The translations under genes and the position numbers were made by a program. A stretch of 64,000 nt of DNA from an uncultured Acidobacteriota bacterium (GTDB lineage Bacteria; Acidobacteriota; Thermoanaerobaculia; Multivoradales; UBA5704), in assembly GCA_963700145.1 (NCBI GenBank), contig OY969474.1, positions 512,001 to 576,000 on the forward strand, read 5' to 3'. Shown here one piece after another: positions 2,969 through 53,128 of this stretch; position 1 is the first letter of the stretch; every line of letters begins with the position of its first letter. Under the pieces are notes generated by a model. It did no database searches. It was not told the origin of the DNA and saw only the letters and a program-made list of their open reading frames with translations.

Positions 2969-4270
2969 TCACGCCGAGTCCAGCTCCTCGGCGGCCTCCT
3001 CCGCCACGTCGGCCGGGGAGAGCAGCAGCGGCAGAGAGGCGATCGCGGCCACCAGATAGAGGCACGCCGCCACGTTCAACATCACCGTCGCTCCGGTGAC
3101 GTCCGCCAGGGTGCTGCCGAGCCCCATCCCGGCGAGCATCGTCAGCGAGATCACGGTGGTGTAGGCGCCGAAGACCCGCCCCCGGTACTCGTCCGTGGTG
3201 CTGGTCTGGAGCAGGATCTGCGCCCCGACCAGCCAGGCCATCGCCGGAAGGCCGACGATCACCAGCAGAACCAGGGTCAGCCAGAACGACGGCACGTTGA
3301 CAATGACCAGGAAGATCAGGCCGAGGCTGAGCAGGCCTAGTCCGACCAGGCGAGCCGCACGGACGTTGCTGCTGGTGTGGCCAATGACGAACCCGCCGAG
3401 CATTCCACCCAGGCCTCGCGCCGTGAGCAGCCAGCCGAACTCTGCGGCTCCGACCTTCAGGCCGTCCTTGACGAAGACGACGAGCAGGGCGGTGAGGATG
3501 CTGTCGCCGAAGGTGGAGATGCCCTGCACCAGGAAGAGCCAAAGAACCCGCCGATTGCGGGAGAGCAGACGGAGACCCTCGATCCACTCGCTTCCCCAAC
3601 CGGTCCCGCGGCGGCGAGAGACGTCGGCGGGAGCTCCCTCGACGGCCGGTACAGGGGCGGTCCGCCCCCCCATGAAGGAGAGGAACAACGCCGACACAAG
3701 GAAGGAGGCCGAATCGAGCACCACGACGCCGGACAGACCCACCACCCCGAGCAGTCCGCCGCCCACCAACGGGCCGATGAGCCGGGCGATGTTGTCGCTC
3801 AGGGCGTCGAGCGAGTTCGCGGCCCCGAGCTGGCGCTTGCCCACCAGCAGCGGGATCAGGGAGAACTTGGCGGGGACGAAGAACAGCGAAACGAGCGCGC
3901 TCAGGAACGCCACCACGTAGAGAATCCAGACCGTGTCAGCCGAGCGCGCCAGCAGGAAGAAGGGGACGAGCACGGCACGCAGGATGTCGCAGACGATGAG
4001 CGTGGATTTGCGGTTCCAGCGGTCCACGAAGACGCCTGCCAGGGAGGACAAGAAGAGCCCCGGCAGCAGCTGCGTGACGAAAAGGGTTCCCGTGATCGTC
4101 GCTGATCCGGTCAGCTCATAGGCGTAGAAGGGAAGGGCGGTGATGCGCACCCAATCCCCGATCGCGGAGATGACCTGGCCGATGAGCAGCAGCGAGAAGT
4201 CGCGCTGCCGCAGGACTTCCCACATCGCCAGCCGGTCGGCTTTTCTCTGTCGTGCGTTCTCGCTGTTCAA
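2969..4270 (-). CDS. MFS transporter (DHA3/MefA-like), likely product exporter
   Basis: About 12 hydrophobic segments; GQVISAIGDW, GVFVDRWNRK, EYRGRVFG. Start is either TTG 4270 (4-nt overlap with the NRPS stop at 4267) or ATG 4225; the longer ORF-track N-terminus is off-frame NRPS sequence. Confidence 0.88.
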   Translation of the reverse strand: MNSENARQRKADRLAMWEVLRQRDFSLLLIGQVISAIGDWVRITALPFYAYELTGSATITGTLFVTQLLPGLFLSSLAGVFVDRWNRKSTLIVCDILRAVLVPFFLLARSADTVWILYVVAFLSALVSLFFVPAKFSLIPLLVGKRQLGAANSLDALSDNIARLIGPLVGGGLLGVVGLSGVVVLDSASFLVSALFLSFMGGRTAPVPAVEGAPADVSRRRGTGWGSEWIEGLRLLSRNRRVLWLFLVQGISTFGDSILTALLVVFVKDGLKVGAAEFGWLLTARGLGGMLGGFVIGHTSSNVRAARLVGLGLLSLGLIFLVIVNVPSFWLTLVLLVIVGLPAMAWLVGAQILLQTSTTDEYRGRVFGAYTTVISLTMLAGMGLGSTLADVTGATVMLNVAACLYLVAAIASLPLLLSPADVAEEAAEELDSA

Positions 4271-7200
4271 GTTCGGTCCTCGGCCATGTTGAGGCATTCG
4301 GTGAGCCGGCTGGCCAGGGACCGCACCCGCGGCTCGATCATCATCGTGCTGTGGCTGCCCGGGACGTCGAGGACGACCAGGGGTTCGGAGGTGAGAGCCT
4401 GCCAACCCGACCACAGCTCGGGGCTCCCGAGACCCGGATGGTCCACCAGCTCGCGCAGCCAGGGGTCCTCCTCCGGTGCGCGGAGTATGGTGATGCGCCC
4501 GGAGTAGACCCGCGGCACGAACTGCCGGAGGACGCTGAGCGCGCTGAGGTGGATCTTGAAGATGCGCCGCATGTGCTCCCTGCCGGCCGGCGGCAACACC
4601 CCGGCGGCGAGCAGGCGCTCCAACGCCCAGTCCAGCCGCCGCGTCGGCTCCACGGCGCGAATCTCGTCGAGGTCGACGTCCGGCGAGCTGCCGTGCAAAC
4701 GGGCCGCGGCGGCCATCAGCTCGACGAGGACGGCCTCGTCCGCCGCCACGGCTTCGGACAGGATCAGCCGCCCGCGGTGGATCGGGGACCAGACGTCGAG
4801 CAACGCCAGCAGCGCCACCTGCTGGCCCCGCTCGCACAACTGCCGCGCCATCTCGAAGGCGACGAAGCCGCCGAAGGAGAACCCGCCCAGCAGATAGGGC
4901 CCCTGCGGTTGGAGCTGCCGGATCTCGTCCAGGTAACAGGCCGCCATGTCCTCGACGGACGTGAGCGGCTCGCGAGTGCCGTCGAGGCCCACCGCCTGGA
5001 GCGCATAGAACGGCCGTTCGGGGTCGAAGTGCCGCGCCAAGTCGGCGAAGCTCAGGACGTTGCCGCCCGCGGGATGAACGCAGAAGAAGGGACGGCGGCT
5101 GCCGCCGGGCTTGATCGCCACCAGCGGCGACCACGCTGCCAGATCCTTGCGCTCACGGAGGCGGGCGGCAAGCTCCCGGGGCGTGGTCGCGGACAGCAGT
5201 ACCGACAGCGGCAGATCGTGCCCGAACTGCTCACGGATGCGCGTCATCAGCGCGATGGCCAGGACGGAGGTGCCGCCTAGTTCGAAAAAGTCGTCGGTGG
5301 CCGCGATCGGGCGGAGTCCGAACACCGTTTCCCAGAGCGCGGCGAGCTGGATCTCCAGGACGTCCACTCCGGCGAGGTCCCGCTGCAGGCTGCCGCGCCT
5401 CGCTTCGCCATGGACCGCGTCGGGGTCCGGCAGAGAGCCCGCAGCCAGCTCGCCGGCGGCGTCGCGCGGCAGAGCGTCGAGGAACACGAAGTCGGTGGGC
5501 AGCCGGCGGCCGTCGACGCGCTCGCGCAGCCAGCTCCGCAGCACCGCGGCGGAAGGGCGTGCCTGGCCTGAAGACACGACATAGGCCACCAGGGCGGTGC
5601 CCCGGCTCACCACTGCAACGTCCCGCACGTCCGGACGTTGGCGCAGAGCCGCTTCCAGCTCCTCGTCCGCCGCAGCGGGGCTGGAAACCTCGCTGGCGCA
5701 GAGCTGACTCCTCTCCTGCGCGTCGAGAAGCGGCAGCTCTCCGAGCCGGGTCTCCGGCGGGCCCGTCATGCCCTCCAGCAGGCTGCGGACCCGGCCCAAG
5801 ATGCGCTGCGCCGTCGCGGCGTCGAAGCGCCGGCAGTCGTAAGCGAGGGACAACGGAAGTGCCGGCGCCGGCTCGGCAAGCAGGGTCAGGGCGCTACTGG
5901 TGCGGCTGCCGAAGTGATACACCTGCTCTGTGACCAAGCTCCGGGGGCCGGAGGCGTCGCTCTCCACCGGGTAGTTTTCGAACACCACCATGCTCTCATA
6001 GAGCGGCAGGTGGGCCGGTACCTCGCTGCCGGCGCGGATCCGCGCTTGGGAGAGATACTCGTAGGAACGCTGGCGGACCTGCCGATCCAGGAGCTCCCGC
6101 AGCCAGGGGATCAACTCCGCGTCGAGTCTGACCGGCACGCGCAGCGGCACGTTGTTGAGGAAGGGGCCGAGGATGGCCTCGACACCCGGCAGGTCCGGTG
6201 GACGGCCGGAAACCGTGATCCCGAAGATCGCCTCCTCTTCGCCGCTCGAGCGCGCGAGGCAGAGGGCCCAGGCGCCTTGCACGAGAGTCCCGAGCGTCAA
6301 GCGGTCGGAGCGCGCCCGGTCGCGCAGCGCCGCGGACAGCTCCGGGCTGAGCAGGAGTCGTGCCTCGCCGAAGCCCGTCGCCGTCGGGTCCCGGTGGACG
6401 CCGTCCAGGGGCAGCGGCGTGGGCGCGCCGAACCCCTCGAGGGCTTGGCGCCAGAAGGTTTCGGCCTCACGCTCGTCCTGCCGCTGCAGCCAGGCGATGA
6501 AGTCGCGGTACGACCTCGCAGGGGGAAGCTGCGGCTCCTCTCCGGCGGCGAGCGCTTCGTAGAGCCGGAAGACCTCGGCCACCAGGCGGGCGTGCCCCCA
6601 GCCGTCGAGCAGGAGATGATGCACGGTCCACAGCAGATGGTGCTCGCGCTCGCCCGTACGCACGAGAGTGAGCCGCATGAGGGGAGGGCGGTCCAGAGCC
6701 AGGCCGCGGCGCCGGTCCTCCAAGCAGAGGGCTTCGAGAGCCGTCGGCCTTCGAGCTTCGGGCAGCGCGCTCCAGTCCAGTGTCTCCCACGGCAGCCGCG
6801 GCGCACGGCAGACGGCCTGCAGCGGCTCTCGCAGGTCGCGCCAGAGGAAGGCCGTGCGCAGCATTCCATGGCGTTCCATGGCCCGCTGCCAGCTCGCCCG
6901 GAGGGTCTCGCCGTCGAGAGGACCTTGCAGGCGCCAGAGGAATTGGAGCACCCCGAGATCCGAGTGGGCGACGGCCACGGCATGGATCAGCATATCGAGC
7001 TGCATGGGCGACAGAGGGAGCAGGTCCACGATCGCCGGTTCGCTGCGGAGAAGGCGATCGAGGGTGCCCTGGTCCACGCGCGCGAGGGGGAAATCGGAAG
7101 GGGTCGCGCCTCCTGGCTCCACTTCCAGGCAATGCGCAATCAGCGTGCGCAAGGCGGCGGTGAAGCCCGCGCAGATCCATTGGATCCGCGCGTCGTCGTG

Positions 7201-10200
7201 CAGCTCGGGGCTGTAGGTCCAATCGACCCGGAGTTCGCCGGCGAAGACCATGGCCAGGATCTCGAAGGCGTGCACACGGCGGTTGCGGGGGCTCCGATAC
7301 GGTCCGACGGGCTCCGGCGCAGGGGCGAGGAGGCTCTCGCGGGACAGCGGGGAGTCGATGCGGCCCAGATAATTGAAGCTGACCGTGGCCGGCGGCAGCT
7401 CACGGAGCGACCGCGCGACGGACTCGTCCGCGCAGAGGTACCGCAGGACGCCGAAGCCCAGCCCGTGCAGCGGCACGGAACGCAGCCGCTCCTTGACGGC
7501 CTTCAACAGCTCGCCCGGCCCCGTGGCTCCATCGCGGCAGAGGGTGACCGGATAGAGCGCGGTGAACCACCCGACCGTCCGGGACAGGTCCACGTCGGCG
7601 AAGAGCGGCTCGCGTCCGTGCGCTTCCAGGTCGATGCGCAGCCCGCTCCCCTCGCCGCACCACTCCTCGAAGACGAGCAACAGAGCCGTCAGCAGCACGT
7701 CGTCGACGCGGTTGCGGTAGGCCCGCGGCACCTGCTGCAGCAGCGCCTGCGTCTCCTCGGCGGTGAGCGATACCGAGAGCGTGCGAGTGGAAGTTGGCAC
7801 GCCGCTGCCGCCGCGGTCGACCGGCACCGGAACCACCGGCCTGGCTCCCTCCGCGAGCCAGAAGCCCAGCTCTTGCAGCGCCGCCGGCGTCGCGGCGTAG
7901 GCCTCGAGTCGGGTGCTCCAATCCCGCCAGGACGTCGTCTTGGCCGCGAGCCGGAGGTTGCGGCTGCCACCCTCGATGCGCAGCGCGGTCTCCAGGTCCT
8001 CCAAGAGGATGGACCAGGAGACGGTGTCGACGACGAGGTGGTGGATGACAATCAACAGCCGGCCGTCCCGGTCCGGACCCAGGTCGAACCACGCGGCCCG
8101 CAGGAGGGGACCGGCGGTGAGATCGAGGCCCGTTTGCAGACCGGCCGCTGCGGCCGTCACGGTCGCCGCCTGCTGGTGGACGCCCAGAGCGGACAGGTCG
8201 GCGTGCGAGAACGACACCGGCTCTCCAGGGGCGCCGCCGGTCGGTTCCCACGTGTCGCCGCGGCGAGCGAAACGCAGCCGCAGAGCGTCATGACGTTCGA
8301 GCAGACCGGCCAGAGCGCGCTCCAGCGCCCGTGGCGAGACGCGATGCCGCACGACGAGCAGCGCCGCCTGGTTGAAGTGCCAGGGCTCTGCGAAGTCCTG
8401 CTCGAAGAACCAGCGCTGGATCGGAGTGAGCGTCACCGCATCGGTGACGGCCTCTTGCTCGGTCCGGAGCGTCGAGGCCGGCTCGGTGAGCGCCGCCAGC
8501 TCGCTGACCGTCGGGCAGCGGAAGAGGGAGAGCGGAGGCAGGCCGAGGCCGATCTCGTGACCGCGGGCGCTGATCCGGATGGCAAGGATCGAGTCGCCAC
8601 CGAGCTCGAAGAAGTTGTCGTGGATCCCGATGCCTTCGATGCCGAGGACGGCGCTCCAGATCTCGATCAGGTGTCTCTCGACCGCCGTCCTCGGCGCCGC
8701 ATAGGGGACTGCCAGGTCGGGGCGAGTGGGATCCGGGAGCGGCAGGAGCCGCCGGTTCACCTTGCCGGTGGGGGTTAGGGGGAGAGCGTCGAGCAGGACG
8801 AAGGCAGCGGGCACCATGTACGACGGCAGTTGACCGCTCAGGGCGTTGCGCAGCTCGGCGCGCGTCGGATTGGCCTCCCGAGCTGGGACGACATAGGCAG
8901 TGAGACGCCGGTCGCCTGGGCGAGGCTCGAACACCGTGACCGCGCTCGCGGCGACGCCGGGGTGCCGCGACAGCGCCGCTTCGACGTCTCCGAGCTCGAT
9001 CCGGAAGCCGCGGACCTTTACTTGATGGTCGGTCCGGCCGAGGAACTCCAGACTGCCGTCGGTCCGATGGCGGGCGCGGTCTCCCGTCCGATACAGCCGC
9101 GCTCCGGGTTGACCGCCGAACGGGTCTGGAACGAAGCGCTCCGCCGTCAGATCGGGCCGGCCGCCGTAACCCCGCGCCAGGCAATCGCCGCCGACGAAGA
9201 TCTCGCCGGCGGCCCCTTGCGGGACCAGCTCGCCGTGGGAGCCCAGCAGGTAGAGGCGCACGTTGTCGACGGGGTAGCCGAGCGACGGCGGCTCGGCACT
9301 GCCTGCTGGGACGAGACCGGCGGTGGCCAGGACCGTCGTCTCCGTCGGCCCGAAGCAGTTGTACACCTCGAAGGGGATGCCCGGGCGGTGCGCCTGCCGC
9401 ATCCAGTCTCCGCCGACGAGCAGGCTGCGCAGCGCCGTCGGTTCCGGCCACGGCAGTCTCAGCACCGCTTCGGCCAGGGGTGTGACCAGCAGATGGACCT
9501 TGATCCCTTCCGCCACCAGCCAGTCGCGCAGACGTTCCGGCTGCTGGCGCTCCTCATCTCCGGCGATGTGGACGCTCCCCCCCGACGTGAGGCTCGGCCA
9601 GATCTCGCCGACCGACGAGTCGAAGGAGAAACTGGCCGTCTTGCCCGAGCGGTCACCGGGGCCGACGGCGAAGCGGCGGCGGTGGAAGGTGATGTAGTTG
9701 ACGACACTGCGGTGCTCGACCTGGATGCCCTTGGGCTCTCCCGTCGAGCCCGACGTATAGATGACGTAAGCCAGGTGACGCGGCGAGCGCGGGCCCGGCG
9801 GGCGCTCCGTTGTCCCCTGGTGCGACTCCGGGCCGTCCAGCAGCAGCCGGGGAACGCGGGTCCGTGACACGCGCGCCACCAGGTGCTCCTGGGTGAGCAG
9901 CGCCGCCGCCCCGGAGTCCTCCAGCATGACGCGCAGCCTCTCCTCGGGATAGGAAGGATCGAGCGGCAGGTAGGCTCCTCCGGCCTTGAGCACCGCCAGA
10001 GCGGCGACGATCATCTCGAGGCTCGGATCGGTGGCGATCCCCACTGGCACGTCGGGGCCGACGCCGAGCCGCCGTAAGCGCCATGCCAGATGGTTCGCCC
10101 GGCGCTCCAGCTCGCCGTAGGTCAGGCATCGACCCGGCTCGGAGACGGCGAGCGCGTCGGGGGAGGCCGCCGCCTGCTCTTCGAACAGCTCGTGGACGCA

Positions 10201-11697
10201 ACGGTCGTGCGGGTACGCCGCCGATGTCGCGTTCCTCTCCACCCGCAGGACGTGGAGCTCGGACGGCGAGAGGAGGGGCAGGTCGGCGAGCCGCCGCTCC
10301 GGCTCGTTGACGATGCCCTGGAGCAGGGTCAGGAAGCGCTCGGTGAACAGTGCCGCCGTGCTGTCGAAGTGCAGGTCGGGGTTGTACTCCAGATGCCCGA
10401 CGAACTCCGTCGGCGTCTGATACATCTCCAGGGTCAGATCGAACTTGGCCTGACCGCTGTTTACGGGCAGCGGCTCCACCTCGAGGCCCGGCAGGTCCAG
10501 CTCGGCCTCCTGCAGGGTGTGGAGCACGAAGGCGGCCTGGAAGATCGGATTGCGGCTGGCGTCACGCTCGAGATGGAGCTCCTTGACCAGCTTGTCGAAG
10601 CCGATCTCCTGATGGGCGAATGCCTCCACGAGGTTGCTCTGGATGCGCTCCAGGAGCTCACGGAACGGCGGATCGCCGGCGAGATCACAGCGCATCACCA
10701 GCGTGCTCGGGAAGCAGCCGATGATCTGCTGCAGCTCGGGCCGCCCGCGGTTCGCACTGGGGATGCCGATAAGTAGGTCGGTCTGCGAGGTGTGGCGGTG
10801 CAGCCATATCGCGTAGGCCGTGAGCAAGATGGCGAATGGCGTGACTCGCTGCTGCCGGCCGAGGGCGCGGAGCGCTTGGCTCACCCGCCGATCGCCGGCG
10901 AACCTGCGATAGGCGCCGCGAAAGGTCTGGACCTTCGGCCGCGGCCGATCGAGGGGTAGGGCGAGCACTGGCAGGGATGCCTCGAGCCGGCGCAGCCAAT
11001 AGTCCATTTGGTCCCGGAGCTCGCCGGCCTGCCAGCGGCGCGACTCCCAATCGGCGTAATCGGCGTACTGGATGGACAGCGGCTGGAGCGCCGGCGGCAC
11101 TCCTGTCCCATGGCTGCGGTAGACCGCCGACAGCTCCTGCAGCAGCAGTCCTTGAGACCAACCGTCGAGGATCGTGTGGTGGGCGCTGAGCAGCAGCGCG
11201 TGGCGGTCCGGCTCCTGCCGCAGCAACAGGGCCCGCAACAAGGGGCCGTGGACCAGGTCGAAGGGCCGGCGAGCCTCGGCGTCCAGCACGCGCCGGCACT
11301 CGCCGGTGCGCACGGACGCGGGCAGCGCCGCGAGATCGATCAGGGGGAGGGGGGTCGACCCGGCGTGAGGCGAGACCTTCTGTCGCGGTTCGCCGTCGAC
11401 GATCTCGAACGTGGTGCGGAGAGCCTCATGACGTCCGACGACCACGGACAAGCCGTGGGCCAGCGCCGATCGGTTCAGCACGCCCTGGAGATTCAGGGCC
11501 AGAGGCAGGTTATAGAAAGAGCTGCCCGGATCCAGGGTCGAGAGAATCCAGATCCGCTGCTGCGACGACGACAGGGGTGCGGGCTCGACGCTCTCGCGCC
11601 GCGTGATCGCCTGCGGCCGGACTGCGGACAGGCCTTCCTCTCGGCGCCACGTCTCCAGCAAGGCGCGTTTTCGCGGCGAGAGCTGGAAGCGGCTCAC
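4267..11697 (-). CDS. Terminal NRPS: C-A-T-E-C-[A-subdomain remnant]-T-TE
   Basis: GTG 11697 overlaps the upstream TGA. C HHTILDGWS; A YTSGSTGEPKG...PLTPTGK; T GGDSI; E LTPIQRWF/HHLVVDTVSW; DCL-type C HHLLLDGWG; T GGTSV; TE GFSFG and PGSH. A code read by eye about DSGLLGCVLK (unassigned). Confidence 0.93.
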   Translation of the reverse strand: MSRFQLSPRKRALLETWRREEGLSAVRPQAITRRESVEPAPLSSSQQRIWILSTLDPGSSFYNLPLALNLQGVLNRSALAHGLSVVVGRHEALRTTFEIVDGEPRQKVSPHAGSTPLPLIDLAALPASVRTGECRRVLDAEARRPFDLVHGPLLRALLLRQEPDRHALLLSAHHTILDGWSQGLLLQELSAVYRSHGTGVPPALQPLSIQYADYADWESRRWQAGELRDQMDYWLRRLEASLPVLALPLDRPRPKVQTFRGAYRRFAGDRRVSQALRALGRQQRVTPFAILLTAYAIWLHRHTSQTDLLIGIPSANRGRPELQQIIGCFPSTLVMRCDLAGDPPFRELLERIQSNLVEAFAHQEIGFDKLVKELHLERDASRNPIFQAAFVLHTLQEAELDLPGLEVEPLPVNSGQAKFDLTLEMYQTPTEFVGHLEYNPDLHFDSTAALFTERFLTLLQGIVNEPERRLADLPLLSPSELHVLRVERNATSAAYPHDRCVHELFEEQAAASPDALAVSEPGRCLTYGELERRANHLAWRLRRLGVGPDVPVGIATDPSLEMIVAALAVLKAGGAYLPLDPSYPEERLRVMLEDSGAAALLTQEHLVARVSRTRVPRLLLDGPESHQGTTERPPGPRSPRHLAYVIYTSGSTGEPKGIQVEHRSVVNYITFHRRRFAVGPGDRSGKTASFSFDSSVGEIWPSLTSGGSVHIAGDEERQQPERLRDWLVAEGIKVHLLVTPLAEAVLRLPWPEPTALRSLLVGGDWMRQAHRPGIPFEVYNCFGPTETTVLATAGLVPAGSAEPPSLGYPVDNVRLYLLGSHGELVPQGAAGEIFVGGDCLARGYGGRPDLTAERFVPDPFGGQPGARLYRTGDRARHRTDGSLEFLGRTDHQVKVRGFRIELGDVEAALSRHPGVAASAVTVFEPRPGDRRLTAYVVPAREANPTRAELRNALSGQLPSYMVPAAFVLLDALPLTPTGKVNRRLLPLPDPTRPDLAVPYAAPRTAVERHLIEIWSAVLGIEGIGIHDNFFELGGDSILAIRISARGHEIGLGLPPLSLFRCPTVSELAALTEPASTLRTEQEAVTDAVTLTPIQRWFFEQDFAEPWHFNQAALLVVRHRVSPRALERALAGLLERHDALRLRFARRGDTWEPTGGAPGEPVSFSHADLSALGVHQQAATVTAAAAGLQTGLDLTAGPLLRAAWFDLGPDRDGRLLIVIHHLVVDTVSWSILLEDLETALRIEGGSRNLRLAAKTTSWRDWSTRLEAYAATPAALQELGFWLAEGARPVVPVPVDRGGSGVPTSTRTLSVSLTAEETQALLQQVPRAYRNRVDDVLLTALLLVFEEWCGEGSGLRIDLEAHGREPLFADVDLSRTVGWFTALYPVTLCRDGATGPGELLKAVKERLRSVPLHGLGFGVLRYLCADESVARSLRELPPATVSFNYLGRIDSPLSRESLLAPAPEPVGPYRSPRNRRVHAFEILAMVFAGELRVDWTYSPELHDDARIQWICAGFTAALRTLIAHCLEVEPGGATPSDFPLARVDQGTLDRLLRSEPAIVDLLPLSPMQLDMLIHAVAVAHSDLGVLQFLWRLQGPLDGETLRASWQRAMERHGMLRTAFLWRDLREPLQAVCRAPRLPWETLDWSALPEARRPTALEALCLEDRRRGLALDRPPLMRLTLVRTGEREHHLLWTVHHLLLDGWGHARLVAEVFRLYEALAAGEEPQLPPARSYRDFIAWLQRQDEREAETFWRQALEGFGAPTPLPLDGVHRDPTATGFGEARLLLSPELSAALRDRARSDRLTLGTLVQGAWALCLARSSGEEEAIFGITVSGRPPDLPGVEAILGPFLNNVPLRVPVRLDAELIPWLRELLDRQVRQRSYEYLSQARIRAGSEVPAHLPLYESMVVFENYPVESDASGPRSLVTEQVYHFGSRTSSALTLLAEPAPALPLSLAYDCRRFDAATAQRILGRVRSLLEGMTGPPETRLGELPLLDAQERSQLCASEVSSPAAADEELEAALRQRPDVRDVAVVSRGTALVAYVVSSGQARPSAAVLRSWLRERVDGRRLPTDFVFLDALPRDAAGELAAGSLPDPDAVHGEARRGSLQRDLAGVDVLEIQLAALWETVFGLRPIAATDDFFELGGTSVLAIALMTRIREQFGHDLPLSVLLSATTPRELAARLRERKDLAAWSPLVAIKPGGSRRPFFCVHPAGGNVLSFADLARHFDPERPFYALQAVGLDGTREPLTSVEDMAACYLDEIRQLQPQGPYLLGGFSFGGFVAFEMARQLCERGQQVALLALLDVWSPIHRGRLILSEAVAADEAVLVELMAAAARLHGSSPDVDLDEIRAVEPTRRLDWALERLLAAGVLPPAGREHMRRIFKIHLSALSVLRQFVPRVYSGRITILRAPEEDPWLRELVDHPGLGSPELWSGWQALTSEPLVVLDVPGSHSTMMIEPRVRSLASRLTECLNMAEDRT

Positions 11698-14957: not shown

Positions 14958-14963
14958 CGATCC

Positions 14964-27626: not shown

Positions 27627-27635
27627 GGCTGCACC

Positions 27636-29248: not shown

Positions 29249-29252
<4 letters not shown>
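27636..29252 (-). CDS. MIO-dependent tyrosine 2,3-aminomutase (CmdF/SgcC4-like)
   Basis: GTG 29252 overlaps the upstream TGA; YGVNTGFG, NLIRTHAAGGGE, GSLGASGDL (MIO ASG at 28791-28799), QNAYSLR and SNGQNQDVVSMG (NQD, Tyr/Phe type). Adjacent to a beta-Tyr-type A domain. Confidence 0.85.
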
Positions 29253-32688
<3,436 letters not shown>

Positions 32689-32692
<4 letters not shown>

Positions 32693-41600: not shown

Positions 41601-41805
41601 AGCCCGGCGCCAACTGATCCAGGAACCACAGACGGATCTGGGCAAAGGACGCCCGAGCACGCTCCCCGCCCGACTCCCGCCGCGGAATCGGCAGCAGCGA
41701 CGGATCCAGCCCCTCCCGACGCAGCAGCTCCTCCAGCAGGCGGCGCTTGTCGCCGGCAAGAGCGCTCGGGGTCGTCGGCGTTCGGTTGGTGAGCTCGCCG
41801 CGCAT
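32689..41805 (-). CDS. Bimodular NRPS (C-A/MT-T)x2, methyltransferase inserted between A8 and A9
   Basis: ATG 41805 in a TGATG overlap; C HHVVADGWS twice; A code about DACQLALLAK twice; SAM motif VLEIGAGTGLLL twice; T GGHSL twice. Confidence 0.93.
32804..41734. repeat. Tandem direct duplication of a ~4.47 kb NRPS module (copies about 32804-37267 and 37277-41734)
   Basis: Matching anchors offset by 4467-4473 nt (gcggtggcggcgatggtgggtgcttcg at 32804 and 37277; ctcctcc at 37261 and 41728); long near-identical stretches in the A and T regions. Confidence 0.95.
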
Positions 41806-43319: not shown

Positions 43320-43335
43320 GAGCCCTGAGCTCCGT

Positions 43336-45594
43336 CTACGGCGCACCTTCGCCGCTCGTCACGGGCGCGTCGGCGTTCTCCGCTCGCTGTCCTTCGAGGA
43401 ACGCCTTGACCTCCTCCGCCGACAGTCTGGCGACCAGCTCGGCCAGCCGCTCGACGCGGCCGGCGTCGGCGACCGGTTTGCCCGTCGCCGCGAGGTGCCG
43501 GGCGAGCCGGGCCGGGCTCGGATGCTCGAAGAGACGGTGGGCATTGATCGAGACGTGCAGCCTCTGGCCCAGACGCGAGACGATCTGAGTCGCGAGCAAG
43601 GAGTCCCCGCTCAGCTCGACGAAGTCGTCGTGAACCCCGACCGGCGTGAAGCCGAAAACCTCCTGCCAGGCGGCGACGATCTGCGTCTCCATCTCGTTCC
43701 GAGGTGCCGTGTAGGGAGTCGACAGGGACGGGCGCGGGCGCGCTCCGGGCGCCGCGACGTTCGCCGCCACCGCGGTGGCATCCGGAGCGGAGCGCGCCGC
43801 GGGCGGGGACTGCACCTCGTAGCGCTGGCGCTGGAAAGGATAGGTGGGAAGCGGTATGCGCCGGCGGCGCCGGCCGGCATGGCGGCGCGCGAAATCGACG
43901 TCGGCTCCCGCGACCCAGAGATAGCCGAGGCTGGCGAGGTCCTCCGACGCCTCGGTGTCCGCGGGCAGCGTCGCGACGGCGACCGTGGCCTGGCCGAGGT
44001 CCTGCGCCAGGGCGGGCAGGTGCCGCGCTCTGACTTCGCCGTTCAGCATGCGAGCGGCGTCGTCGAGGACTGCGCCGAGGCCGGCGGTGTCGCGGTATAC
44101 CGCGGCGCGCCGGCGGCCGAAAGCCCGGCGCCCCGTCTGCAGCGTGTACGCGAGGTCCGACGGATCGACCTCCGGGTGAAGCTCCAGATGGCGCCGTAGA
44201 CGTCGCGTCATCTCTTCGAGGGCCGCGTCGTCGCGGGCCGACAGGACCAGGAGGTGCCATGAGTCCACGGCCGTCGCGGCCTGCTGCGCGGGAGCTTCTT
44301 CGAGGACGACGTGGGCGTTGGTGCCGCCGACGCCGAACGAGCTGACGCCGGCGCGGCGGGGAGAGGCGACGGCCGGCCATGCGGAAAGTCTCGCGTTGAC
44401 GAAGAACGGGCTGTCCTCGAGCGAGATGTCCGGGTGGAGGGACTCGAAGTGGAGGACGGGCGGCAGCTCGCGATGCTCGAGAGCGAGCGTGGCCTTGATG
44501 AGGCTGGCGATGCCCGCAGCCTCGTCCAGGTGTCCCACGTTGGGTTTGCTCGAGCTGAGGGCGCAGAACCCTCGCGCCGCGGTGGAAAGGCGGAACGCGC
44601 GGGTCAGGGCGGCGACCTCCATCGCGTCCCCGAGCGGTGTGCCGACGCCGTGCGCCTCGACGTAACCGATCGTCTCCGCGGGGATCCCGGCGGCGCCGAG
44701 CGCCAGGGTGACGACCTCCGCCTGGCCTTCGACGCACGGGGTGGTGAACCCCGGCTTGCCCGCCCCGTCGTTGTTCACGGCCGAGCCGCGGATGACGGCG
44801 CGTATCGGGTCGCCGTCGGCGACGGCGTCGGAGAGGCGCTTGAGGAGGACCAGCCCGGCCCCGTTGCCGTGGACGGTGCCCACCGCCCGCCGGTCGAAGG
44901 GGCGGCAGCGGCCGTCCGGCGAGAGGGAGAGACCCTCGCGGTAGAGATAGCCCCGCGGCTGCGGGAAGAAGATGGAGACACCTCCGGCCAAGGCCATGTC
45001 GCAGTGGTAGTCGAGCAGGCTCTGACACGCGAGGTGAACGGCGACCAGAGAGGTGGAGCAGGCGGACTGGAGGGCGATGCTGGGCCCCCGCAGGTCGAGC
45101 TTGTAGGAGAGGCGCGCCGTCAGGCTGCCGCCGTCCACCAGGGCCAGCGGTCCTTCCAGGAGCTCCAGCTTCTGCTCGAGCGACATCCGGCTCTCCAGGT
45201 AGGTACTCGGGCCTGCGCCGGCGAACACGCCGATGGCGCCCGCGTAAGCGGCGGGGTCGTAGCCGGCGCTCTCGAGCGCTTCCCAGGCGCACTCCAGGAT
45301 CAAGCGGTGCTGGGGATCGAGCATCTCCGCTTGGCGGGGCGGGATGCCGAAGAAGGGGGCGTCGAACAGAAGGGGGTCCTCGAGCACTCCTCCGGCTTTG
45401 ACGTAGTCGCTCCGCGCGAGCAGCTCGCGGCGGACGCCGGCCGCCGCCAGCTCGGAGTCGCTGAAGAAGCTGATGGACTCCACGCCGTCGCGCAGATTCC
45501 GCCAGAACGTCTCGGGGTCCGACGCTCCGGGGAAGCGGCAAGCCATGCCGATGATGGCCACGCCCTCCAGCGCCGCTTCCGAAGCGCTGTTCAT
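43336..45594 (-). CDS. Type I PKS module KS-[AT deleted]-ACP
   Basis: KS SACSTS/HGVGT/GHL; the KS-AT linker runs almost directly into the post-AT linker LGYLW...PLPTYPFQRQRY with no GHSxG; ACP SGDSL. Confidence 0.9.
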   Translation of the reverse strand: MNSASEAALEGVAIIGMACRFPGASDPETFWRNLRDGVESISFFSDSELAAAGVRRELLARSDYVKAGGVLEDPLLFDAPFFGIPPRQAEMLDPQHRLILECAWEALESAGYDPAAYAGAIGVFAGAGPSTYLESRMSLEQKLELLEGPLALVDGGSLTARLSYKLDLRGPSIALQSACSTSLVAVHLACQSLLDYHCDMALAGGVSIFFPQPRGYLYREGLSLSPDGRCRPFDRRAVGTVHGNGAGLVLLKRLSDAVADGDPIRAVIRGSAVNNDGAGKPGFTTPCVEGQAEVVTLALGAAGIPAETIGYVEAHGVGTPLGDAMEVAALTRAFRLSTAARGFCALSSSKPNVGHLDEAAGIASLIKATLALEHRELPPVLHFESLHPDISLEDSPFFVNARLSAWPAVASPRRAGVSSFGVGGTNAHVVLEEAPAQQAATAVDSWHLLVLSARDDAALEEMTRRLRRHLELHPEVDPSDLAYTLQTGRRAFGRRRAAVYRDTAGLGAVLDDAARMLNGEVRARHLPALAQDLGQATVAVATLPADTEASEDLASLGYLWVAGADVDFARRHAGRRRRRIPLPTYPFQRQRYEVQSPPAARSAPDATAVAANVAAPGARPRPSLSTPYTAPRNEMETQIVAAWQEVFGFTPVGVHDDFVELSGDSLLATQIVSRLGQRLHVSINAHRLFEHPSPARLARHLAATGKPVADAGRVERLAELVARLSAEEVKAFLEGQRAENADAPVTSGEGAP

Positions 45595-48500
45595 GCAGGG
45601 CTCCGGGAGAGTTGCGGCGGGCGCCGGCGGAGCCTTGCCTCGCGCTGCCTGGCGGCCCTCGCCAGCGCCGCCGGGAGCTGCGAGCCGGCGAGTGCCCCCG
45701 GCGCCGGCGAAGCCTCCAGATAGGCGGCGAGGGACTCGATCGTCGGTTGCTCCAGCAGCTCCAGCATCGACAGCTTGCGGCCGAGCCTCGCGGCGATGTG
45801 GGACCGCACCCGGGCCAGGAGCAGAGAGTGACCGCCGAGGTCGAAGAAGCTCTCCGCCGTGCTCACCTCCGGCAGCTCCAGCACCTCCATCCAGATGCCG
45901 GCCAGCGCCGTCTCGACGGCGCCCTGCGGCGGCGAGGGGGGGCGCGCGTAGAGCGGGCGTGCACTCGCAACCGGTAGCGCGCGGCGGTCGACCTTGCCGT
46001 TAGGAGTCAGCGGCAAGGCGTCGAGCGGCACGAACAGCGCCGGCAGCATGTAGTGCGGCAACCGCTGCCGGAGGAAGTCCCGTAGCTCGTCGGTGGCCGG
46101 AGGCTCATCACCCTTCTCGGCGACCAGGTAGGCGATCAGGCGCCGACCGCCGCCCGCGTCGTCGGCGGTGACGACCGCGGCCTGGACGACAGCCGGATGC
46201 GCGACCAGGGCGGACTCGATCTCGCCGAGCTCGATGCGGAAGCCGCGGACCTTGACCTGGCGGTCCGTGCGGCCCAAGAACTCCAGCCTGCCGTTGGGCC
46301 GGTAGCGGGCTCGGTCACCGGTGCGATAGAGGCGCGCTCCGGGTTCGCCGCCGAGCGGGTGCGGGACGAACGCCGCCGCCGTCAGATCGCCACGCCCGAG
46401 ATAGCCTCGCGCCAGCCCCTGACCGCCGATGTAGAGCTCGCCCGGCACTCCCAGCGGCGCGAGCGCGAGCCCGTCGTCGAGAACGAGGAGGGAGGTGTTG
46501 GCGACGGGCCCCGCCACCGGCACCGGACCCGCGCCGCGCTCCACGCGGTGGGCCGCCGACCAGATCGTGGTTTCGGTGGGCCCGTAGAGGTTCCAGAGGC
46601 TCTCGCCGCGGCTCGCCAGCGCCTCGGCGAGCTCGCGCGGAAGCGCCTCACCGCCGCACAGCAGCCGCAGGCCTGGCCGGCCCGACCAGCCGGCCTCGAG
46701 GAGCAGGCGCCAGGTGGCGGGCGTACCCTGCAGGACCGTGGCGCCGCTCTCCTCGAGGAGAGCGGCGAGACGGCCGCCGTCGCCGGCTTCGTCGGCGCGG
46801 GCCAGCACCACGCGTGCCCCGACGCTCAGCGGGAGAAAGAGCTCCAGGCCGGCGATGTCGAAGCTCGGCGTCGTCACCGCCAGCAGGACGTCGCCAGGCG
46901 TGAGCCCCGGCCGCTCGGCCATCGAGCCGAGGAAGCTCACCACGGCGCGGTGCACGATCTCGACCCCCTTGGGCGTTCCCGTGGAGGCCGAGGTGTAGAT
47001 CACGTAGGCCCGGTGGTCGGCTCCCGCCCCACCGTCATGGTGGGAGTCGCTCCAGGCCGCCACGGCCGCGGCATCGGAGTCCAGGCAGACCCGGCGGTGT
47101 GCTCCGGGGAGGCCCGCGAGGCGGCTCTCGGTGATCAGGACGGCGTTGCGGGAGTCCACGAGCATGTGCTCGACGCGGTGCCGCGGATACCCGGGATCGA
47201 TGGGGACGTAGGCGCCTCCCGCCTTGAGCACGCCGAGCAGCGCCACGAGCAGCTCGAGGGAGCGCTCAAGGCAGACGCCGACGAGGACGTCCGGCCCGAC
47301 GCCGAGAGACCGTAGATGGCGTGCCAGCCGGTTGGCCCGGCGGTCCAGCTCACCGAAGGTGAGGCACGCGTCGGCACAGGCCGCGGCCACGGCGTCGGGG
47401 CGGCGGCGAGCCTGGTCCTCGAAGAGCTGATGCAGGCAGTCGGGCCGCGGTCCGACCACCGCGGTGTCGCTCCACTCCGTCAGGAGCTGGTGCTGCTCGG
47501 CCTGGCTCAGGAGCGCGAGCTCCTGGATGCTCACCTCCGGCTGGGCGATGGCGCTCTCCAGAAGGCGTTGGTACTGAGCCGCCAGGCGGGCGACGGTCGG
47601 CGGCGCAAAGAGATCGGTGCTGTACTCCCACTCGAGGAGGGTCTGCTCGTCCTCGGCCCGTGGGACACGGCCGATGCGCTGCTCCGAGCGCGGTGTCACG
47701 ATGACGTTGAGGTCGAACTTGGCCGAGCCGTTGTGCGGATATTCGATGCGTCCGCTCAGCTCCCCGAAGTCCAGGTCCGGCATCGGAGCGTCGTGGAAGC
47801 TGAACATCACCTGGAAGATCGGGTTGAAGCTCGCGTGACGCTCCGGCCGCAGCTCCTGGACCAGACGATCGAAGGGAAGGTCCTGGTGGGCGAAGGCCTC
47901 CAAGGTGACCTGGTGGACACGGGCCAGCACCTCACGGAACGAGGGGGTGCCCGACAGATCGACGCGCAAGGCCAGGTTGTTGATGATCATGCCGAGGATG
48001 CGCTCGGTCTCACGCCGCCGCCGTCCGGCGACCACCGTACCCACCACCAGGTCGGCGCTGCCGTTGTAGCGGTGGAGGAGGGCGTCGAACGCCGCCAGGA
48101 GCACCATGAACGGAGTGGCGCCGCAGCGGCGGCCGAGCTCGCGGGCCGACGTGAAGAGACCGGGTCGCATCGGTTCCTTGTGGACGGCGCCGCGGAAGCT
48201 CTGCGCCGCGGGCCGCGGGGCGTCGGAGGGGAGCTCGGTCACTCCCGGGATGCCTGCCAGCTTCCGTTTCCAGTACTCGAGCTGCAGGGCGGCGGCTGCG
48301 CTCTGGAGCCACTCCCGCTGCCAGACGGCGTAGTCGGCGAACTGCAACGGCAGCTCCGGCAGCGGAGAGGCGGAGCCGGAGGAGATGGCGCGATACAGCT
48401 CTTCGATCTCACCGAGCAGCAGAGCCATCGACCAGCCGTCGTGGAGAAAATGGTGCTCGACCTGGACCAGCAGGTGCTCGCGCGGGCCGAGGCGCAGCAG

Positions 48501-50822
48501 GCTCCAGCGCACGAGCGGCAGGCGCGTCACGTCGAAGCCGGAGCGGCAGTCCGCGCGGAGCAATCTCGTTTCCTCGGTCGCGCGCGCGGGCCCGGGCAGG
48601 CCCGCCAGGTCGACCACCGGCAGGCGCGGGAGCCACGGCGAGTGAAGGCGCTGGAAAGGCTGGCCGTCTTCGCTCGGGAACGAGGTGGCGAGGATCTCGT
48701 GCCGCGCCACGACCTCGGCCAGCGCCACGCGCAGCGCCGCCACGTTCAAGCCACCCGAGAGGCGCACCGTCACGTAGGCGTTGTAGGCGACGTTCGCGGG
48801 GGAGACCTGCTCGAGGAACCAGACGCGCTCCTGTGCGGACGACAGCGGCAGCCGGCCGGTGCGGGGAACGCGCCGCAGCGGCTGACCGTCCGCATGCTCC
48901 GGGGACTCCGGTGCCTGCGCTACGCGGGCGGCGAGCTCGGCCACCGTGGAGTTGCCCAGCAGGATCTCGGCGGGCAGCGCGACCGACAGGCGCTCCCGAA
49001 TCCGGCTCGCCACCTGGGCGGCCATCAGGGAGTGACCGCCCAGCTCCAGGAACCCGTCGTGGACGCCGACCGGACCGCAGCCGAGGAGGTCCTCCCAGAT
49101 CCCTGCCACCAGACTCTCCACCGGGGTCTCCGGCGCCAGGTAGGGGCGGCCGAGGTCACCTCGGGTCCGCGTTGGAGCGGGCAGCGCGCTGCGGTCGATC
49201 TTGCCTGCCGGCGTCAGGGGCAGCTCGTCGAGGAAGCGGAAGGACGCGGGCACCATGTAGGGCGGCAGCTCTCCGGCGACGAAAGCGCGCAGGTCGGCGA
49301 GGTCCGGCCGGCGCTCGCGCGCCACCAGATAGGCCACCAGGCGGAGCGAGCCCGGCACGTCCTCCCACCCGACCACCACCGACGCGGCCACGTTCGGGTG
49401 CCGTAGGAGGACCGACTCCACCTCCGCCGGCTCGATCCGGAAGCCGCGGATCTTGAGCTGGCGATCGGCGCGCCCGAGGAACTCGAGGTTGCCGTCGGGG
49501 AGGCGCCGTGCGAGGTCACCGCTGCGGAACAGCCGCGCCCCGGGGACGGTAGCGCGAGGATCGGGCACGAAGCTGGCGGCGGTGAGGTCGGGGCGGCGCA
49601 GGTAGCCCCGAGCGACACCGGCGCCGCCGAGGTAGAGCTCGCCCGTCGCGCCGTCAGGAAGCGGGTGCAGGTCGGCGTCCAGCACGTGCGCCGCGACGTT
49701 GGCGATCGGTCTGCCGATCGGGACGGATCGGCGGAGGCCTTCCGGTTCGCTCCCCTCCTCCTCCTCCCACACCGTGGCGGTGACCGTGCCCTCGGTGAGA
49801 CCGTAGGCGTTGAGCCAGCGGACGCGGTGCCCCACCGTGCGGCGCCAGAGCTCGAGCTGCTGCGGCAGCACGCGCTCGCTCCCCACGACGACCAGGCGCA
49901 GGCTCTCGGGCCAGGGCAGGGCGGTGCGCCCGATTTCCGAGGCCCAGCCGTGCCAGTACGGGGCAGGCAGGTTGAGGACGGTGAGCGCCTGCGCGCGGGC
50001 AAGCTCCACCATCGCCGCCACGGAAGTCGCCGCCGCGGCGGAGCGCAGTACGACGGCGCTGCCGCTCAGCCAGGAGGGGAAAATCTCTTCCACGGAGACG
50101 TCGAAGCCGATGGCGGCGAACTGAAGGACCCGATCGGCCGGAGAGAGGCAGTATCGGGTAGCGATGGCGTAGCTCAGGTTGAGGAGAGCCCGGTGGGGCA
50201 CCGCGACGCCTTTGGGCACGCCGGTGGAACCGGACGTGAAGATGACGTAGGCGAGGTTCGATGGGCCGGCACCCCCACTGGGCAAGCTGTCCGGACGTCC
50301 CGCGATCGCCTCCCGGTCCCAGTCGACGCGGACCAGAGGCGGCCCGCCCGTGCCGCCGGCCCACGTCGAGGCCGTGACGACCGCCGCCGGCTTCGCCTCG
50401 TCCAGGATCGCCGCGAGGCGTCGCGGCGGCATGGCAGGGTCCAGCGGCAGGTATGCCGCGCCCGCCGCGAGGATGCCGAGGATCGCGACGAAGAGCTGCG
50501 GCGAGGGAGGGAGGCAAACTCCGACCAAGGTCTCGGGGCCCACGCCGAGTGTTTGCAGATGGTGGGCCAGACGATTGGCGCGGCACACCAGCTCCGCATA
50601 GCTCAGGTGATGGTCGTCGCAGACCAGCGCGACGGCGTCGCCCGCCTCGGCCGCTAGAGCGGCGATGAGCTCGTGCACGCACCGGTCCGCAGGGACAGGG
50701 GTTGCCGGACCGTTCGAGAGGTTGGCCTGGTAATGGCCGGCACGCCGGGAAGCGGTCCGATGCTCGCCGCTGGGAAGTTGGGAGCTACCTTCCTCGAGCG
50801 TTCGCGAGCCATCTTGTTCCAC
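45591..50822 (-). CDS. Initiating NRPS A(Arg/basic-like)-T-C(ureido-forming type)-A(Gly)-T
   Basis: Start uncertain (GTG 50822 with AGGGGG upstream; frame open to 50981). A1 code about DVENVGAVTK; T GGHS; C EHHFLHDG; A2 code DILQLGLIWK; T GGHS. Confidence 0.9.
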   Translation of the reverse strand: MEQDGSRTLEEGSSQLPSGEHRTASRRAGHYQANLSNGPATPVPADRCVHELIAALAAEAGDAVALVCDDHHLSYAELVCRANRLAHHLQTLGVGPETLVGVCLPPSPQLFVAILGILAAGAAYLPLDPAMPPRRLAAILDEAKPAAVVTASTWAGGTGGPPLVRVDWDREAIAGRPDSLPSGGAGPSNLAYVIFTSGSTGVPKGVAVPHRALLNLSYAIATRYCLSPADRVLQFAAIGFDVSVEEIFPSWLSGSAVVLRSAAAATSVAAMVELARAQALTVLNLPAPYWHGWASEIGRTALPWPESLRLVVVGSERVLPQQLELWRRTVGHRVRWLNAYGLTEGTVTATVWEEEEGSEPEGLRRSVPIGRPIANVAAHVLDADLHPLPDGATGELYLGGAGVARGYLRRPDLTAASFVPDPRATVPGARLFRSGDLARRLPDGNLEFLGRADRQLKIRGFRIEPAEVESVLLRHPNVAASVVVGWEDVPGSLRLVAYLVARERRPDLADLRAFVAGELPPYMVPASFRFLDELPLTPAGKIDRSALPAPTRTRGDLGRPYLAPETPVESLVAGIWEDLLGCGPVGVHDGFLELGGHSLMAAQVASRIRERLSVALPAEILLGNSTVAELAARVAQAPESPEHADGQPLRRVPRTGRLPLSSAQERVWFLEQVSPANVAYNAYVTVRLSGGLNVAALRVALAEVVARHEILATSFPSEDGQPFQRLHSPWLPRLPVVDLAGLPGPARATEETRLLRADCRSGFDVTRLPLVRWSLLRLGPREHLLVQVEHHFLHDGWSMALLLGEIEELYRAISSGSASPLPELPLQFADYAVWQREWLQSAAAALQLEYWKRKLAGIPGVTELPSDAPRPAAQSFRGAVHKEPMRPGLFTSARELGRRCGATPFMVLLAAFDALLHRYNGSADLVVGTVVAGRRRRETERILGMIINNLALRVDLSGTPSFREVLARVHQVTLEAFAHQDLPFDRLVQELRPERHASFNPIFQVMFSFHDAPMPDLDFGELSGRIEYPHNGSAKFDLNVIVTPRSEQRIGRVPRAEDEQTLLEWEYSTDLFAPPTVARLAAQYQRLLESAIAQPEVSIQELALLSQAEQHQLLTEWSDTAVVGPRPDCLHQLFEDQARRRPDAVAAACADACLTFGELDRRANRLARHLRSLGVGPDVLVGVCLERSLELLVALLGVLKAGGAYVPIDPGYPRHRVEHMLVDSRNAVLITESRLAGLPGAHRRVCLDSDAAAVAAWSDSHHDGGAGADHRAYVIYTSASTGTPKGVEIVHRAVVSFLGSMAERPGLTPGDVLLAVTTPSFDIAGLELFLPLSVGARVVLARADEAGDGGRLAALLEESGATVLQGTPATWRLLLEAGWSGRPGLRLLCGGEALPRELAEALASRGESLWNLYGPTETTIWSAAHRVERGAGPVPVAGPVANTSLLVLDDGLALAPLGVPGELYIGGQGLARGYLGRGDLTAAAFVPHPLGGEPGARLYRTGDRARYRPNGRLEFLGRTDRQVKVRGFRIELGEIESALVAHPAVVQAAVVTADDAGGGRRLIAYLVAEKGDEPPATDELRDFLRQRLPHYMLPALFVPLDALPLTPNGKVDRRALPVASARPLYARPPSPPQGAVETALAGIWMEVLELPEVSTAESFFDLGGHSLLLARVRSHIAARLGRKLSMLELLEQPTIESLAAYLEASPAPGALAGSQLPAALARAARQREARLRRRPPQLSRSPA

Positions 50823-53111: not shown

Positions 53112-53128
53112 CGCTTTCTCCCGCCCGG

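Follow-up and report, generated by a model that had tools for sequence, protein, structure and literature searches.

What would a 48-kb block of biosynthetic genes in an uncultured Acidobacteriota bacterium make, and is the assembly line that it encodes intact? The block lies at 2969-50822 (~48 kb) on the minus strand of a 64,000-nucleotide stretch of contig OY969474.1 (assembly GCA_963700145.1, positions 512,001 to 576,000; the whole stretch is hereafter the window, and positions refer to it unless the host genome is named) and consists of ten co-oriented long open reading frames (ORFs), g1 to g10, whose reading frames are uninterrupted. We propose, at a probability of roughly 0.7, that it is an intact orphan hybrid operon of nonribosomal peptide synthetase (NRPS) and polyketide synthase (PKS) genes, and that its product would carry a ureido group and be rich in beta-amino acids. 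Few metabolites of Acidobacteriota have been confirmed by experiment (bioRxiv 10.1101/2025.10.02.680145), so that a conserved assembly line from this phylum would be a concrete target for heterologous expression.

Domain architecture of the assembly line

The domain order was obtained from whole-protein Pfam scans together with 53 overlapping tiles of 400 residues, and start codons were chosen so as to adjoin the preceding stop, which sets the limits of g1 to g10. With these limits seven of the nine gene junctions overlap, by 1-31 nt, and the remaining two are spaced by 6 and 9 nt; to judge from this arrangement, g1 to g10 is an operon-like, translationally coupled block. The earlier description of the locus, a sequence-only reading, had counted ten co-oriented, mostly overlapping genes from a loading adenylation (A) domain to a thioesterase (TE) plus exporter, and the ORFs, their overlaps and the Pfam domain order all agree with it.

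The line begins with g1 (45591..50822), in which Pfam and the specificity codes give a loading A-thiolation (T) didomain, a ureido-type condensation (C) domain and a Gly-coded A-T. It is followed by g2 (43336..45594), a ketosynthase (KS), KS/acyltransferase (AT) linker, post-AT linker and acyl carrier protein (ACP) with no AT between the linkers, and by g3 (41805..43346), a histidase-like enzyme of the 4-methylideneimidazole-5-one (MIO) type (Pfam Lyase_aromatic) that alignment and tree place in an NRPS-associated clade. The gene g4 (32689..41805) encodes C-A-T twice, each A domain with an N-methyltransferase (MT) insert, g5 (29249..32692) encodes a single C-A-T, and g6 (27636..29252) encodes a second Lyase_aromatic protein, an MIO enzyme of the tyrosine 2,3-aminomutase type. 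The longest gene, g7 (14964..27626; Pfam, motifs and codes), has the order C-A(Ala code)-T-KS-AT-ACP-Aminotran_3-C-A(Gly-like)-T-epimerization (E). It is followed by g8 (11694..14957; Pfam, alignment and code), a C domain with a DCL-like N-terminus and a Gly-like-coded A-T, and by g9 (4267..11697; Pfam, alignment and code), with C-A-T-E-C, an AMP-binding_C match alone, and T-TE. The line closes with g10 (2969..4297; Pfam), an exporter of the major facilitator superfamily (MFS) that overlaps the end of g9.

The catalytic motifs are kept throughout. HHxxxD is present in all 11 aligned C and E domains, the carrier Ser in 12 of 12 carrier domains, and Cys-His-His in both KS domains (g2 and g7). 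The PKS module of g7 has its KS, its AT (GHSVG and HAFH, the malonyl signature) and its ACP Ser all in place and is a complete cis-AT module. Alignment divides the 11 C-type domains into two E-type, two DCL-like and otherwise LCL-like domains. The two E-type domains, of g7 and g9, are 38% identical to one another and ~20% to the other C domains, and they carry the usual E motifs. A DCL-like N-terminus (LSPxQ..ML.H) is found in the C domain of g8 and the last C domain of g9, each directly after an E domain. The E-type domain at the C-terminus of g7 (15054..16358; Pfam and alignment) follows a Gly-coded module, and the carrier before it reads GGDSI, as carriers acting with E domains typically do. 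The order of modules that had been drawn as a collinear string holds in outline, but this E domain had been left out of it.

Both g4 modules match Methyltransf_11/12/25 and contain VLEIGAGTG, within an insert of ~430 residues in the C-terminal part of the A domain, and by these features they are of the N-methylating type. The proteins of the two modules are 92.4% identical and their DNA, over 4.4 kb, 92.8%, which marks a recent tandem duplication. Such a repeat is also a likely assembly hazard.

The predicted ureido start

The C domain of g1, C1 (47481..48854, by alignment), lies between the loading A-T didomain and the first A-T and reads VEHHFLHDGWS, with EHHFLHDG at 48435-48458; it is the only one of the 11 C/E domains of the cluster in which EHHXXHDG occurs. 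According to Yu & van der Donk 2024 (PMC11212132), EHHXXHDG, as opposed to XHHXXXDG, is common to the C domains of ureido-containing nonribosomal peptides and is carried by no other C domain in MIBiG; the substitutions E744A and H749A in SnaA bring urea formation down to the detection limit, the terminal residue in these Curea systems is supplied by the loading A-T, and SnaA required an MbtH protein. The motif and the position of C1 right after the loading A-T support its prediction as a ureido-forming domain, and the ureido cap proposed earlier is retained. A second A-T-C-A-T start was seen in another Acidobacteriota genome, G162, which is described below (locus L106, contig C127, 7301-12223); its C domain reads EHHLLTDG, in which the Glu is present and the second His absent, short of the Curea signature.

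The tyrosine aminomutase-type enzyme

The g6 protein passes the NCBIfam equivalog for tyrosine 2,3-aminomutase (TIGR03832; 516.5 bits, cut-off 501) and matches SgTAM (2OHY/2RJR) with an E value of 1e-123. It has the MIO triad in GASGD, and its segment 'lirtHaag' aligns on 'lvrsHsag' of SgTAM, the His of which is the residue that selects Tyr by its phenol. The assignment of g6 as a predicted tyrosine 2,3-aminomutase is thus supported. That the cluster has two MIO enzymes, as the sequence-only reading stated, is borne out by the Lyase_aromatic matches of g3 and g6 and by this equivalog match.

The histidase-like enzyme and its clade

The best solved relatives of g3 are histidases (P. putida histidine ammonia-lyase, HAL, 1GKM/1B8F; ~44% identity, E 1e-103), with SgTAM at 1e-75. 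The protein narrowly misses the hutH equivalog TIGR01225 (535.2 bits, cut-off 539.15), passes the looser histidase subfamily model NF006871 (557.5 bits, cut-off 524) and is 34% identical to g6. Elsewhere in the host genome, at 1.344 Mb, another MIO gene, the third, is HutH-like and 44% identical to g3, and it groups with the histidases of relatives. A search of 5.8 billion proteins turned up at least 120 members of a g3 clade, with identities of 63-90%; the named ones are called histidine ammonia-lyase, and the members come from Chloroflexota, Pyrinomonadaceae, Thermoanaerobaculia, myxobacteria (Phaselicystis, Stigmatella, Polyangium), Ktedonobacteraceae and Allonocardiopsis. A protein of Phaselicystis flava in UniRef/nr (A0A3S5GYG7) is 71% identical and may stem from a deposited, possibly characterized cluster; we found nothing on such a cluster in the literature searched, a search that here and throughout excludes subscription journals and supplements.

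The 120 listed clade members were aligned with ten housekeeping histidases from the genomes of relatives, and the active-site residues were read in the P. putida HAL numbering (Y53, S-H83, N195, Q277, Y280, R283, F329 and E414). The Ala-Ser-Gly triad is kept in g3. Y53, S-H83, N195, Y280, R283 and E414 are kept in all 120 listed members and Q277 in 110 of them, with F329 replaced by Leu in all 120; this position is Phe in all ten housekeeping histidases and in g6. A further 24 positions are specific to the clade (25 in total), and many of these sites flank catalytic residues (HAL 63, 79, 139, 194, 197, 200, 311, 316, 333, 406 and 410). In a quick IQ-TREE analysis of 49 rows (g3, the G162 copy, 30 of the 120 members, being the first 6 plus 24 random ones, and others), all 32 clade rows lie on one branch nested among the histidases, which has an SH-aLRT of 100 and whose stem measures 1.86 changes per column.

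The genomic context of the clade is mostly that of an NRPS pathway. In the window g3 stands between a KS-ACP gene and an NRPS gene, not in a hut operon. A metagenome scan gave 42 loci with a g3-type gene, the neighbours of which were annotated by tblastn using the window's own domains. NRPS domains lie beside the MIO gene in 30 of them; in most of the remaining 12 the flank is shorter than 2.5 kb or the MIO gene is at the contig end, and for five of these 12 a scan of 12 ORFs near the MIO gene showed neither hutU nor hutI. Most often the order is A(MT)-T, MIO gene, C. An A domain of the g4/g5 clade is next to the MIO gene in 20 of the 42 loci, with codes, read by the same script as below, beginning DACQ (11 loci, 8 of them exactly DACQLALVL), DVCQ (4 loci), DAPH (3 loci), DACI (1 locus) and DACE (1 locus). 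These partner A domains retain Asp235 and belong to elongation modules, many of which have an N-MT, and from this it would follow that their substrate must bear an amine, as the product of a lyase would not, and this argues that the MIO partner is a mutase rather than a lyase.

On this basis we put forward g3 as a candidate histidine 2,3-aminomutase that would supply beta-histidine. More broadly we hypothesize, at somewhat less than even odds, that the g3 clade comprises MIO-dependent histidine 2,3-aminomutases that derive from histidases by a burst of substitutions, F329L among them, and feed beta-histidine to DACQLALVL-type, often N-methylating A domains, and that the product of the present cluster has two N-methyl-beta-histidines followed by a beta-tyrosine. 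According to a 2022 review, no genomic evidence points to a histidine aminomutase (PMC9002059); the literature searched gave nothing beyond that review on beta-histidine or a histidine aminomutase, and nothing on an NRPS-linked histidase. If our hypothesis is true, both the enzyme activity of the clade and the building block that it supplies would be new, and soil Acidobacteriota, Chloroflexota, myxobacteria and actinomycetes would produce an unseen class of beta-histidine nonribosomal peptides. With the g3 clade and its partner A domain, the question of a histidine aminomutase becomes directly testable. In three of the metagenome clusters with a g3-type gene there is also an A domain with the code VAWLTSLSN, without Asp235 (L118 12270-13508, L125 ~10951-12489 and L134 11256-12815), which may point to yet another substrate of this peptide family, one that is not an alpha-amino acid.

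Specificity codes of the A domains

The ten Stachelhaus positions were located by the GrsA numbering on a MAFFT alignment of the nine A domains and read by script. The codes of A1 in g1 (DILQLGLIWK) and of A6 in g7 (DLFNNALTYK) equal the canonical Gly and Ala codes, respectively, and this agreement calibrates the choice of alignment columns. The second A domain of g7, A8 (DILQLGVIWK), and that of g8, A9 (DILQLGVVWK), are Gly-like; that of g9, A10, reads DSGLLGCVLK. Hence, with three exact or near-exact Gly codes and one Ala code, the assignment of Gly, Ala, Gly and Gly in the sequence-only reading stands. Its choice of Arg for the loading domain goes further than the code: A0 (DVENVGAVTK) has a Glu at position 239, and this acidic residue suggests a basic substrate without singling out Arg.

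The remaining three A domains form a group of their own. A3 and A4 of g4 (both DACQLALVLK, the last two variable positions being LA, not VL, under an alternative placement of a one-residue gap) are 97% identical to each other and have their nearest relative in A5 of g5 (DPAQLALVAK), at 48-49%; the identity to the other six A domains is 37-42% for A3/A4 and 38-41% for A5. We propose from their adjacency to MIO genes, and from the co-occurrence of the two elsewhere, that the g4 and g5 A domains load beta-amino acids. A reference beta-tyrosine module was not obtained, the search for a tyrosine aminomutase in Corallococcus, Chondromyces, Actinokineospora and one Myxococcota metagenome-assembled genome giving a best match of 39%.

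The aminotransferase unit and the terminal module

The aminotransferase domain of g7 (19623..20717; Pfam Aminotran_3), which depends on pyridoxal phosphate (PLP), is of the MycA type: its closest solved relative is the MycA domain of mycosubtilin synthase (6KFM, E 1.2e-132), and the PLP Lys is aligned, 'tyGKaiggg' over 'tyGKiiggg'. In iturin and mycosubtilin biosynthesis the aminotransferase turns a beta-keto thioester into a beta-amine. Placed after KS-AT-ACP in g7, such a domain would yield the beta,gamma-diamino unit that had been foreseen for this product. The terminal module of g9 (4270..7023; Pfam) is C, an AMP-binding_C remnant without the Lys of the A10 motif, T and TE. The same A-less module is kept in G162; it is ancestral and not a sign of decay.

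A conserved counterpart in a second genome

G162 is an Acidobacteriota genome of another family, with 62% G+C, whose copy of the cluster is spread across three contigs. Among 400 genomes sampled evenly from the phylum it was the only one with matches to g3 above 50% (65-66%), and none of 40 genomes from the host's genus, family or order gave a match above 45% identity with this query; with g2 as query against one genome per species, no match exceeded 61% identity. The first G162 contig reads A-T-Curea(EHHLLHDG)-A(Ala code)-T-KS-AT-ketoreductase (KR)-ACP-C, with housekeeping genes (GMP synthase and DnaE) upstream of the first gene, so that this edge of the cluster matches that of the window. 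The second reads MT-T, histidase-like MIO enzyme (65%), C-A(DAAQLALVL)-T-C, and the third MT-T-C-A(DAAQLALIL)-MT-T, tyrosine aminomutase-like MIO enzyme (61%), C-A(Gly)-T-KS-AT-ACP-aminotransferase (63%)-C-A-T-C-A-T-C-A-T-E-C-(A remnant)-T-TE, an MFS gene beside the TE (46% to g10) and an ADOP permease beside that (47%). The two clusters therefore share the Curea domain, both MIO types, the KS-AT-ACP-aminotransferase block, the A-less C-remnant-T-TE and the MFS exporter at 37-65% identity. They differ in that the window has no AT or KR in its first PKS module, has an extra E domain (the C-terminal one of g7, which G162 lacks), and has Gly and Ala swapped at two positions; from their domain content, they are two members of one family with, we would expect, different products.

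Integrity of the line and alternative readings

The sequence-only reading had called the line apparently complete, which goes further than the domains show: the first KS module has no AT and so is not a full type I cis-AT PKS module, the last module has no A domain, and neither an MbtH nor a trans-AT gene is found in the cluster. Several observations count against an intact line with the proposed product. The G162 counterpart of the g2 module has AT and KR, which suggests that the g2 module may be degenerate, and no free-standing AT was found near the cluster; six of the seven AT matches in the host genome are in frames of at least 1469 amino acids (one being the g7 AT), with the seventh in a 663-aa frame ~0.8 Mb away. 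The sole MbtH match in the host genome is at 4.645 Mb, ~4 Mb off, the last carrier is without a cognate A domain, an IS110 fragment is located 2.8 kb upstream of g1, and the E domain at the end of g7 follows a Gly-like-coded module, so either it is pointless or the code is misleading. An unlikely but serious alternative, to which the missing AT and KR, the absence of a trans-AT nearby and the IS110 fragment would all lend weight, is that the cluster is a partly degenerate copy in which g2 is skipped or blocks the line, the product being a truncated ureido dipeptide or lacking the ketide. The loss of the AT is, on the other hand, a clean one. Both flanking linkers remain, KS-AT and post-AT (..LPTYPFQRQRY), ~40 residues apart, which suggests a folded KS; g2 is an open frame of 752 codons with its Cys-His-His and ACP Ser intact and is translationally coupled to g1 and g3, and the downstream genes are all intact. 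The AT-less junction (43812-44070) is also bridged by one short-read contig. Segment 41000-46000 is matched in four soil-metagenome DNA runs from two studies, and the contigs of two of these runs span 42500-46500 with zero indels, one of them as a near-identical variant with ~1% differences, although as independent support this is weak, because the runs may include the source sample. No RNA run was listed for the segment, an uninformative blank which, with the failure of the g3 query to find the cluster in the 40 relatives, is what could be said for a silent relic without a current product. We consider a relic very improbable in view of the 48 kb of uninterrupted frames with all catalytic motifs kept, the soil variant free of indels and the conserved counterpart in G162.

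As to the beta-amino acids, the g4 and g5 A domains have hydrophobic pockets in which no partner for an imidazole or a phenol is obvious, beta-specificity is not readable from codes, and the two presumed G162 counterparts of these domains differ by one residue, DAAQLALVL versus DAAQLALIL. It is doubtful, yet worth keeping in mind, that g3 is an ordinary histidine ammonia-lyase or another urocanate-making lyase and that the g4 A domains load an unrelated substrate, for example an alpha-amino acid, or the beta-Tyr or beta-Phe made by g6. The g3 protein scores best against histidase models and only narrowly misses the hutH equivalog, it keeps every histidase catalytic residue named above except F329, the g4 pocket has no polar partner for imidazole, and neither sequence nor fold separates a lyase from a mutase, so that g3 could be a lyase. 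Set against this are the separate HutH-like gene of the host, the single long-stemmed branch with its 25 clade-specific positions, many beside catalytic residues, the embedding of the clade among NRPS genes with no sign of hutU or hutI in the loci examined for them, and the need of the partner A domain for an amine.

Proposed pathway

In our proposed mechanism the loading A-T and Curea-A-T of g1 would link a basic amino acid to Gly, head-to-head, by a urea that stems from bicarbonate and reverses the polarity of the chain. The AT-less KS-ACP of g2 would then add one malonate loaded in trans, or would be passed over. Meanwhile g3 and g6 would turn free L-amino acids into beta-amino acids, to be loaded by the three related A domains, the two of g4, with N-methylation, and that of g5. 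Ala would be extended by malonate on g7 and the beta-keto group transaminated by the MycA-type domain to give a 3,4-diaminopentanoyl unit, the 4-N of which would carry the upstream chain and the 3-NH2 remain free. Gly, Gly and a D-residue would come next, and a final residue would be added from a carrier that is loaded by another A domain. The TE would release the chain, plausibly in iturin-like fashion by lactamization onto the free beta-amine, a guess by analogy to which we give roughly one chance in three, and the MFS pump would export the product. Four uncommon chemistries are thus predicted in one line: urea chain reversal, three consecutive beta-amino acids, a beta,gamma-diamino unit and an A-less terminal module. 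The foldamer-like, protease-resistant backbone that could result is speculation.

Surroundings of the cluster and the host genome

The G+C content of the window is 67-78%. Convergent with g10 is a duplicated permease of the ADOP family (454..2937, plus strand; TIGR03434, 933 bits), which possibly belongs to the cluster, as its position beside the MFS gene in G162 would allow; the ADOP family is multi-copy in Acidobacteria, so the adjacency could be due to chance. Upstream of g1 lies a 566-residue ORF (51417-53117, minus strand) with a G+C content at third codon positions (GC3) of ~0.95 and a Lys/Arg-rich N-terminus, which has no Pfam or NCBIfam match and no counterpart on G162 contigs C119, C127 (20 of 41.9 kb), C131 and C141; it was set outside the cluster. 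The IS110-family transposase ORF (53636-~54300, plus strand) matches in its DEDD N-terminal domain only and is probably a truncated copy, since the GC3 signal stops near 54250. The segment 54662-63725 encodes an S9 prolyl-oligopeptidase-type protein, a CrtC-like lipocalin, a second ADOP/FtsX permease and a CHASE3-PAS-GAF hybrid histidine kinase; its long ORFs overlap one another and the gene limits are approximate.

The best matches of g2, the two ADOP-family permeases and the soil-metagenome runs are consistent with a soil bacterium of the phylum, probably of the Thermoanaerobaculia. The host genome is a single 5.46-Mb contig with 43 condensation-domain matches in at least five regions. The four NRPS/PKS regions other than the present one lie at 423000-456000 (ending ~56 kb ahead of the window), 1.515-1.544 Mb, 2.954-2.973 Mb and 3.358-3.379 Mb of the host sequence; at 1.53-1.54 Mb the C-domain matches are fragmented and there are in-frame TGA stops.

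Comparison with known systems

The claim that this combination is unlike any characterized cluster agrees with our searches, which found no equivalent in the literature covered and nothing that joins a ureido start with an aminomutase. Its parts, in contrast, have clear parallels. The order KS-AT-ACP-aminotransferase-C of g7 is that of MycA (mycosubtilin/iturin) and of microcystin McyE; the MycA KS is primed by a fatty acyl chain, whereas that of g7 would be primed by peptidyl-Ala, which would place a 3,4-diamino acid within a peptide instead of giving a beta-amino fatty acid. Module 9 of syringomycin SyrE is an A-less module loaded in trans. Another such terminal module is that of CmnI in capreomycin biosynthesis (PMC12400406). 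The last module here is likewise a C-T(-TE) without a working A domain and differs from both in keeping a degenerate C-terminal A subdomain, as does G162, and in that the cluster has no stand-alone A-T or transferase gene.

Like C-1027 (SgcC4), chondramide (CmdF) and myxovalargin (MxvJ), the cluster would obtain beta-tyrosine from an MIO aminomutase, with g6 embedded between NRPS genes, and MxvJ is a precedent for such an enzyme in a nonribosomal peptide pathway (PMC9853869); none of the beta-tyrosine clusters searched has the aminomutase together with all of a ureido start, an in-line aminotransferase and another MIO enzyme. In the habitasporin (hab) locus of Mycetohabitans the MIO aminomutase gene habB is directly downstream of its NRPS gene (PMC9802438), and the MIO gene thus adjoins the NRPS gene whose module uses its beta-amino acid, as is proposed here. 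HabB is, however, a relative of phenylalanine aminomutase, and hab is without ureido, PKS and second MIO enzyme. Threopeptin (sna) of Stackebrandtia nassauensis, syringolin (SylC), anabaenopeptin and pseudovibriamide share with g1 and g2 the A-T-Curea-A-T start with EHHXXHDG and a KS module directly after it. The sna line has KS-AT-T, a PEARL enzyme, MbtH and a stand-alone TE and ends after the ketide, whereas the line described here has an AT-less KS module and nine further modules, without an MbtH or PEARL gene. Lastly, g3 has the triad and the residues Y53, S-H83, N195, Q277, Y280, R283 and E414 in common with HutH (P. putida HAL), and is set apart from it by F329L, the 24 other clade-specific positions, the long stem, the NRPS rather than hut context and a score below the equivalog cut-off. 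Hence the cluster is a variant of known NRPS-PKS logic, and its distinctive part is the histidase-derived MIO clade together with a dedicated type of A domain.

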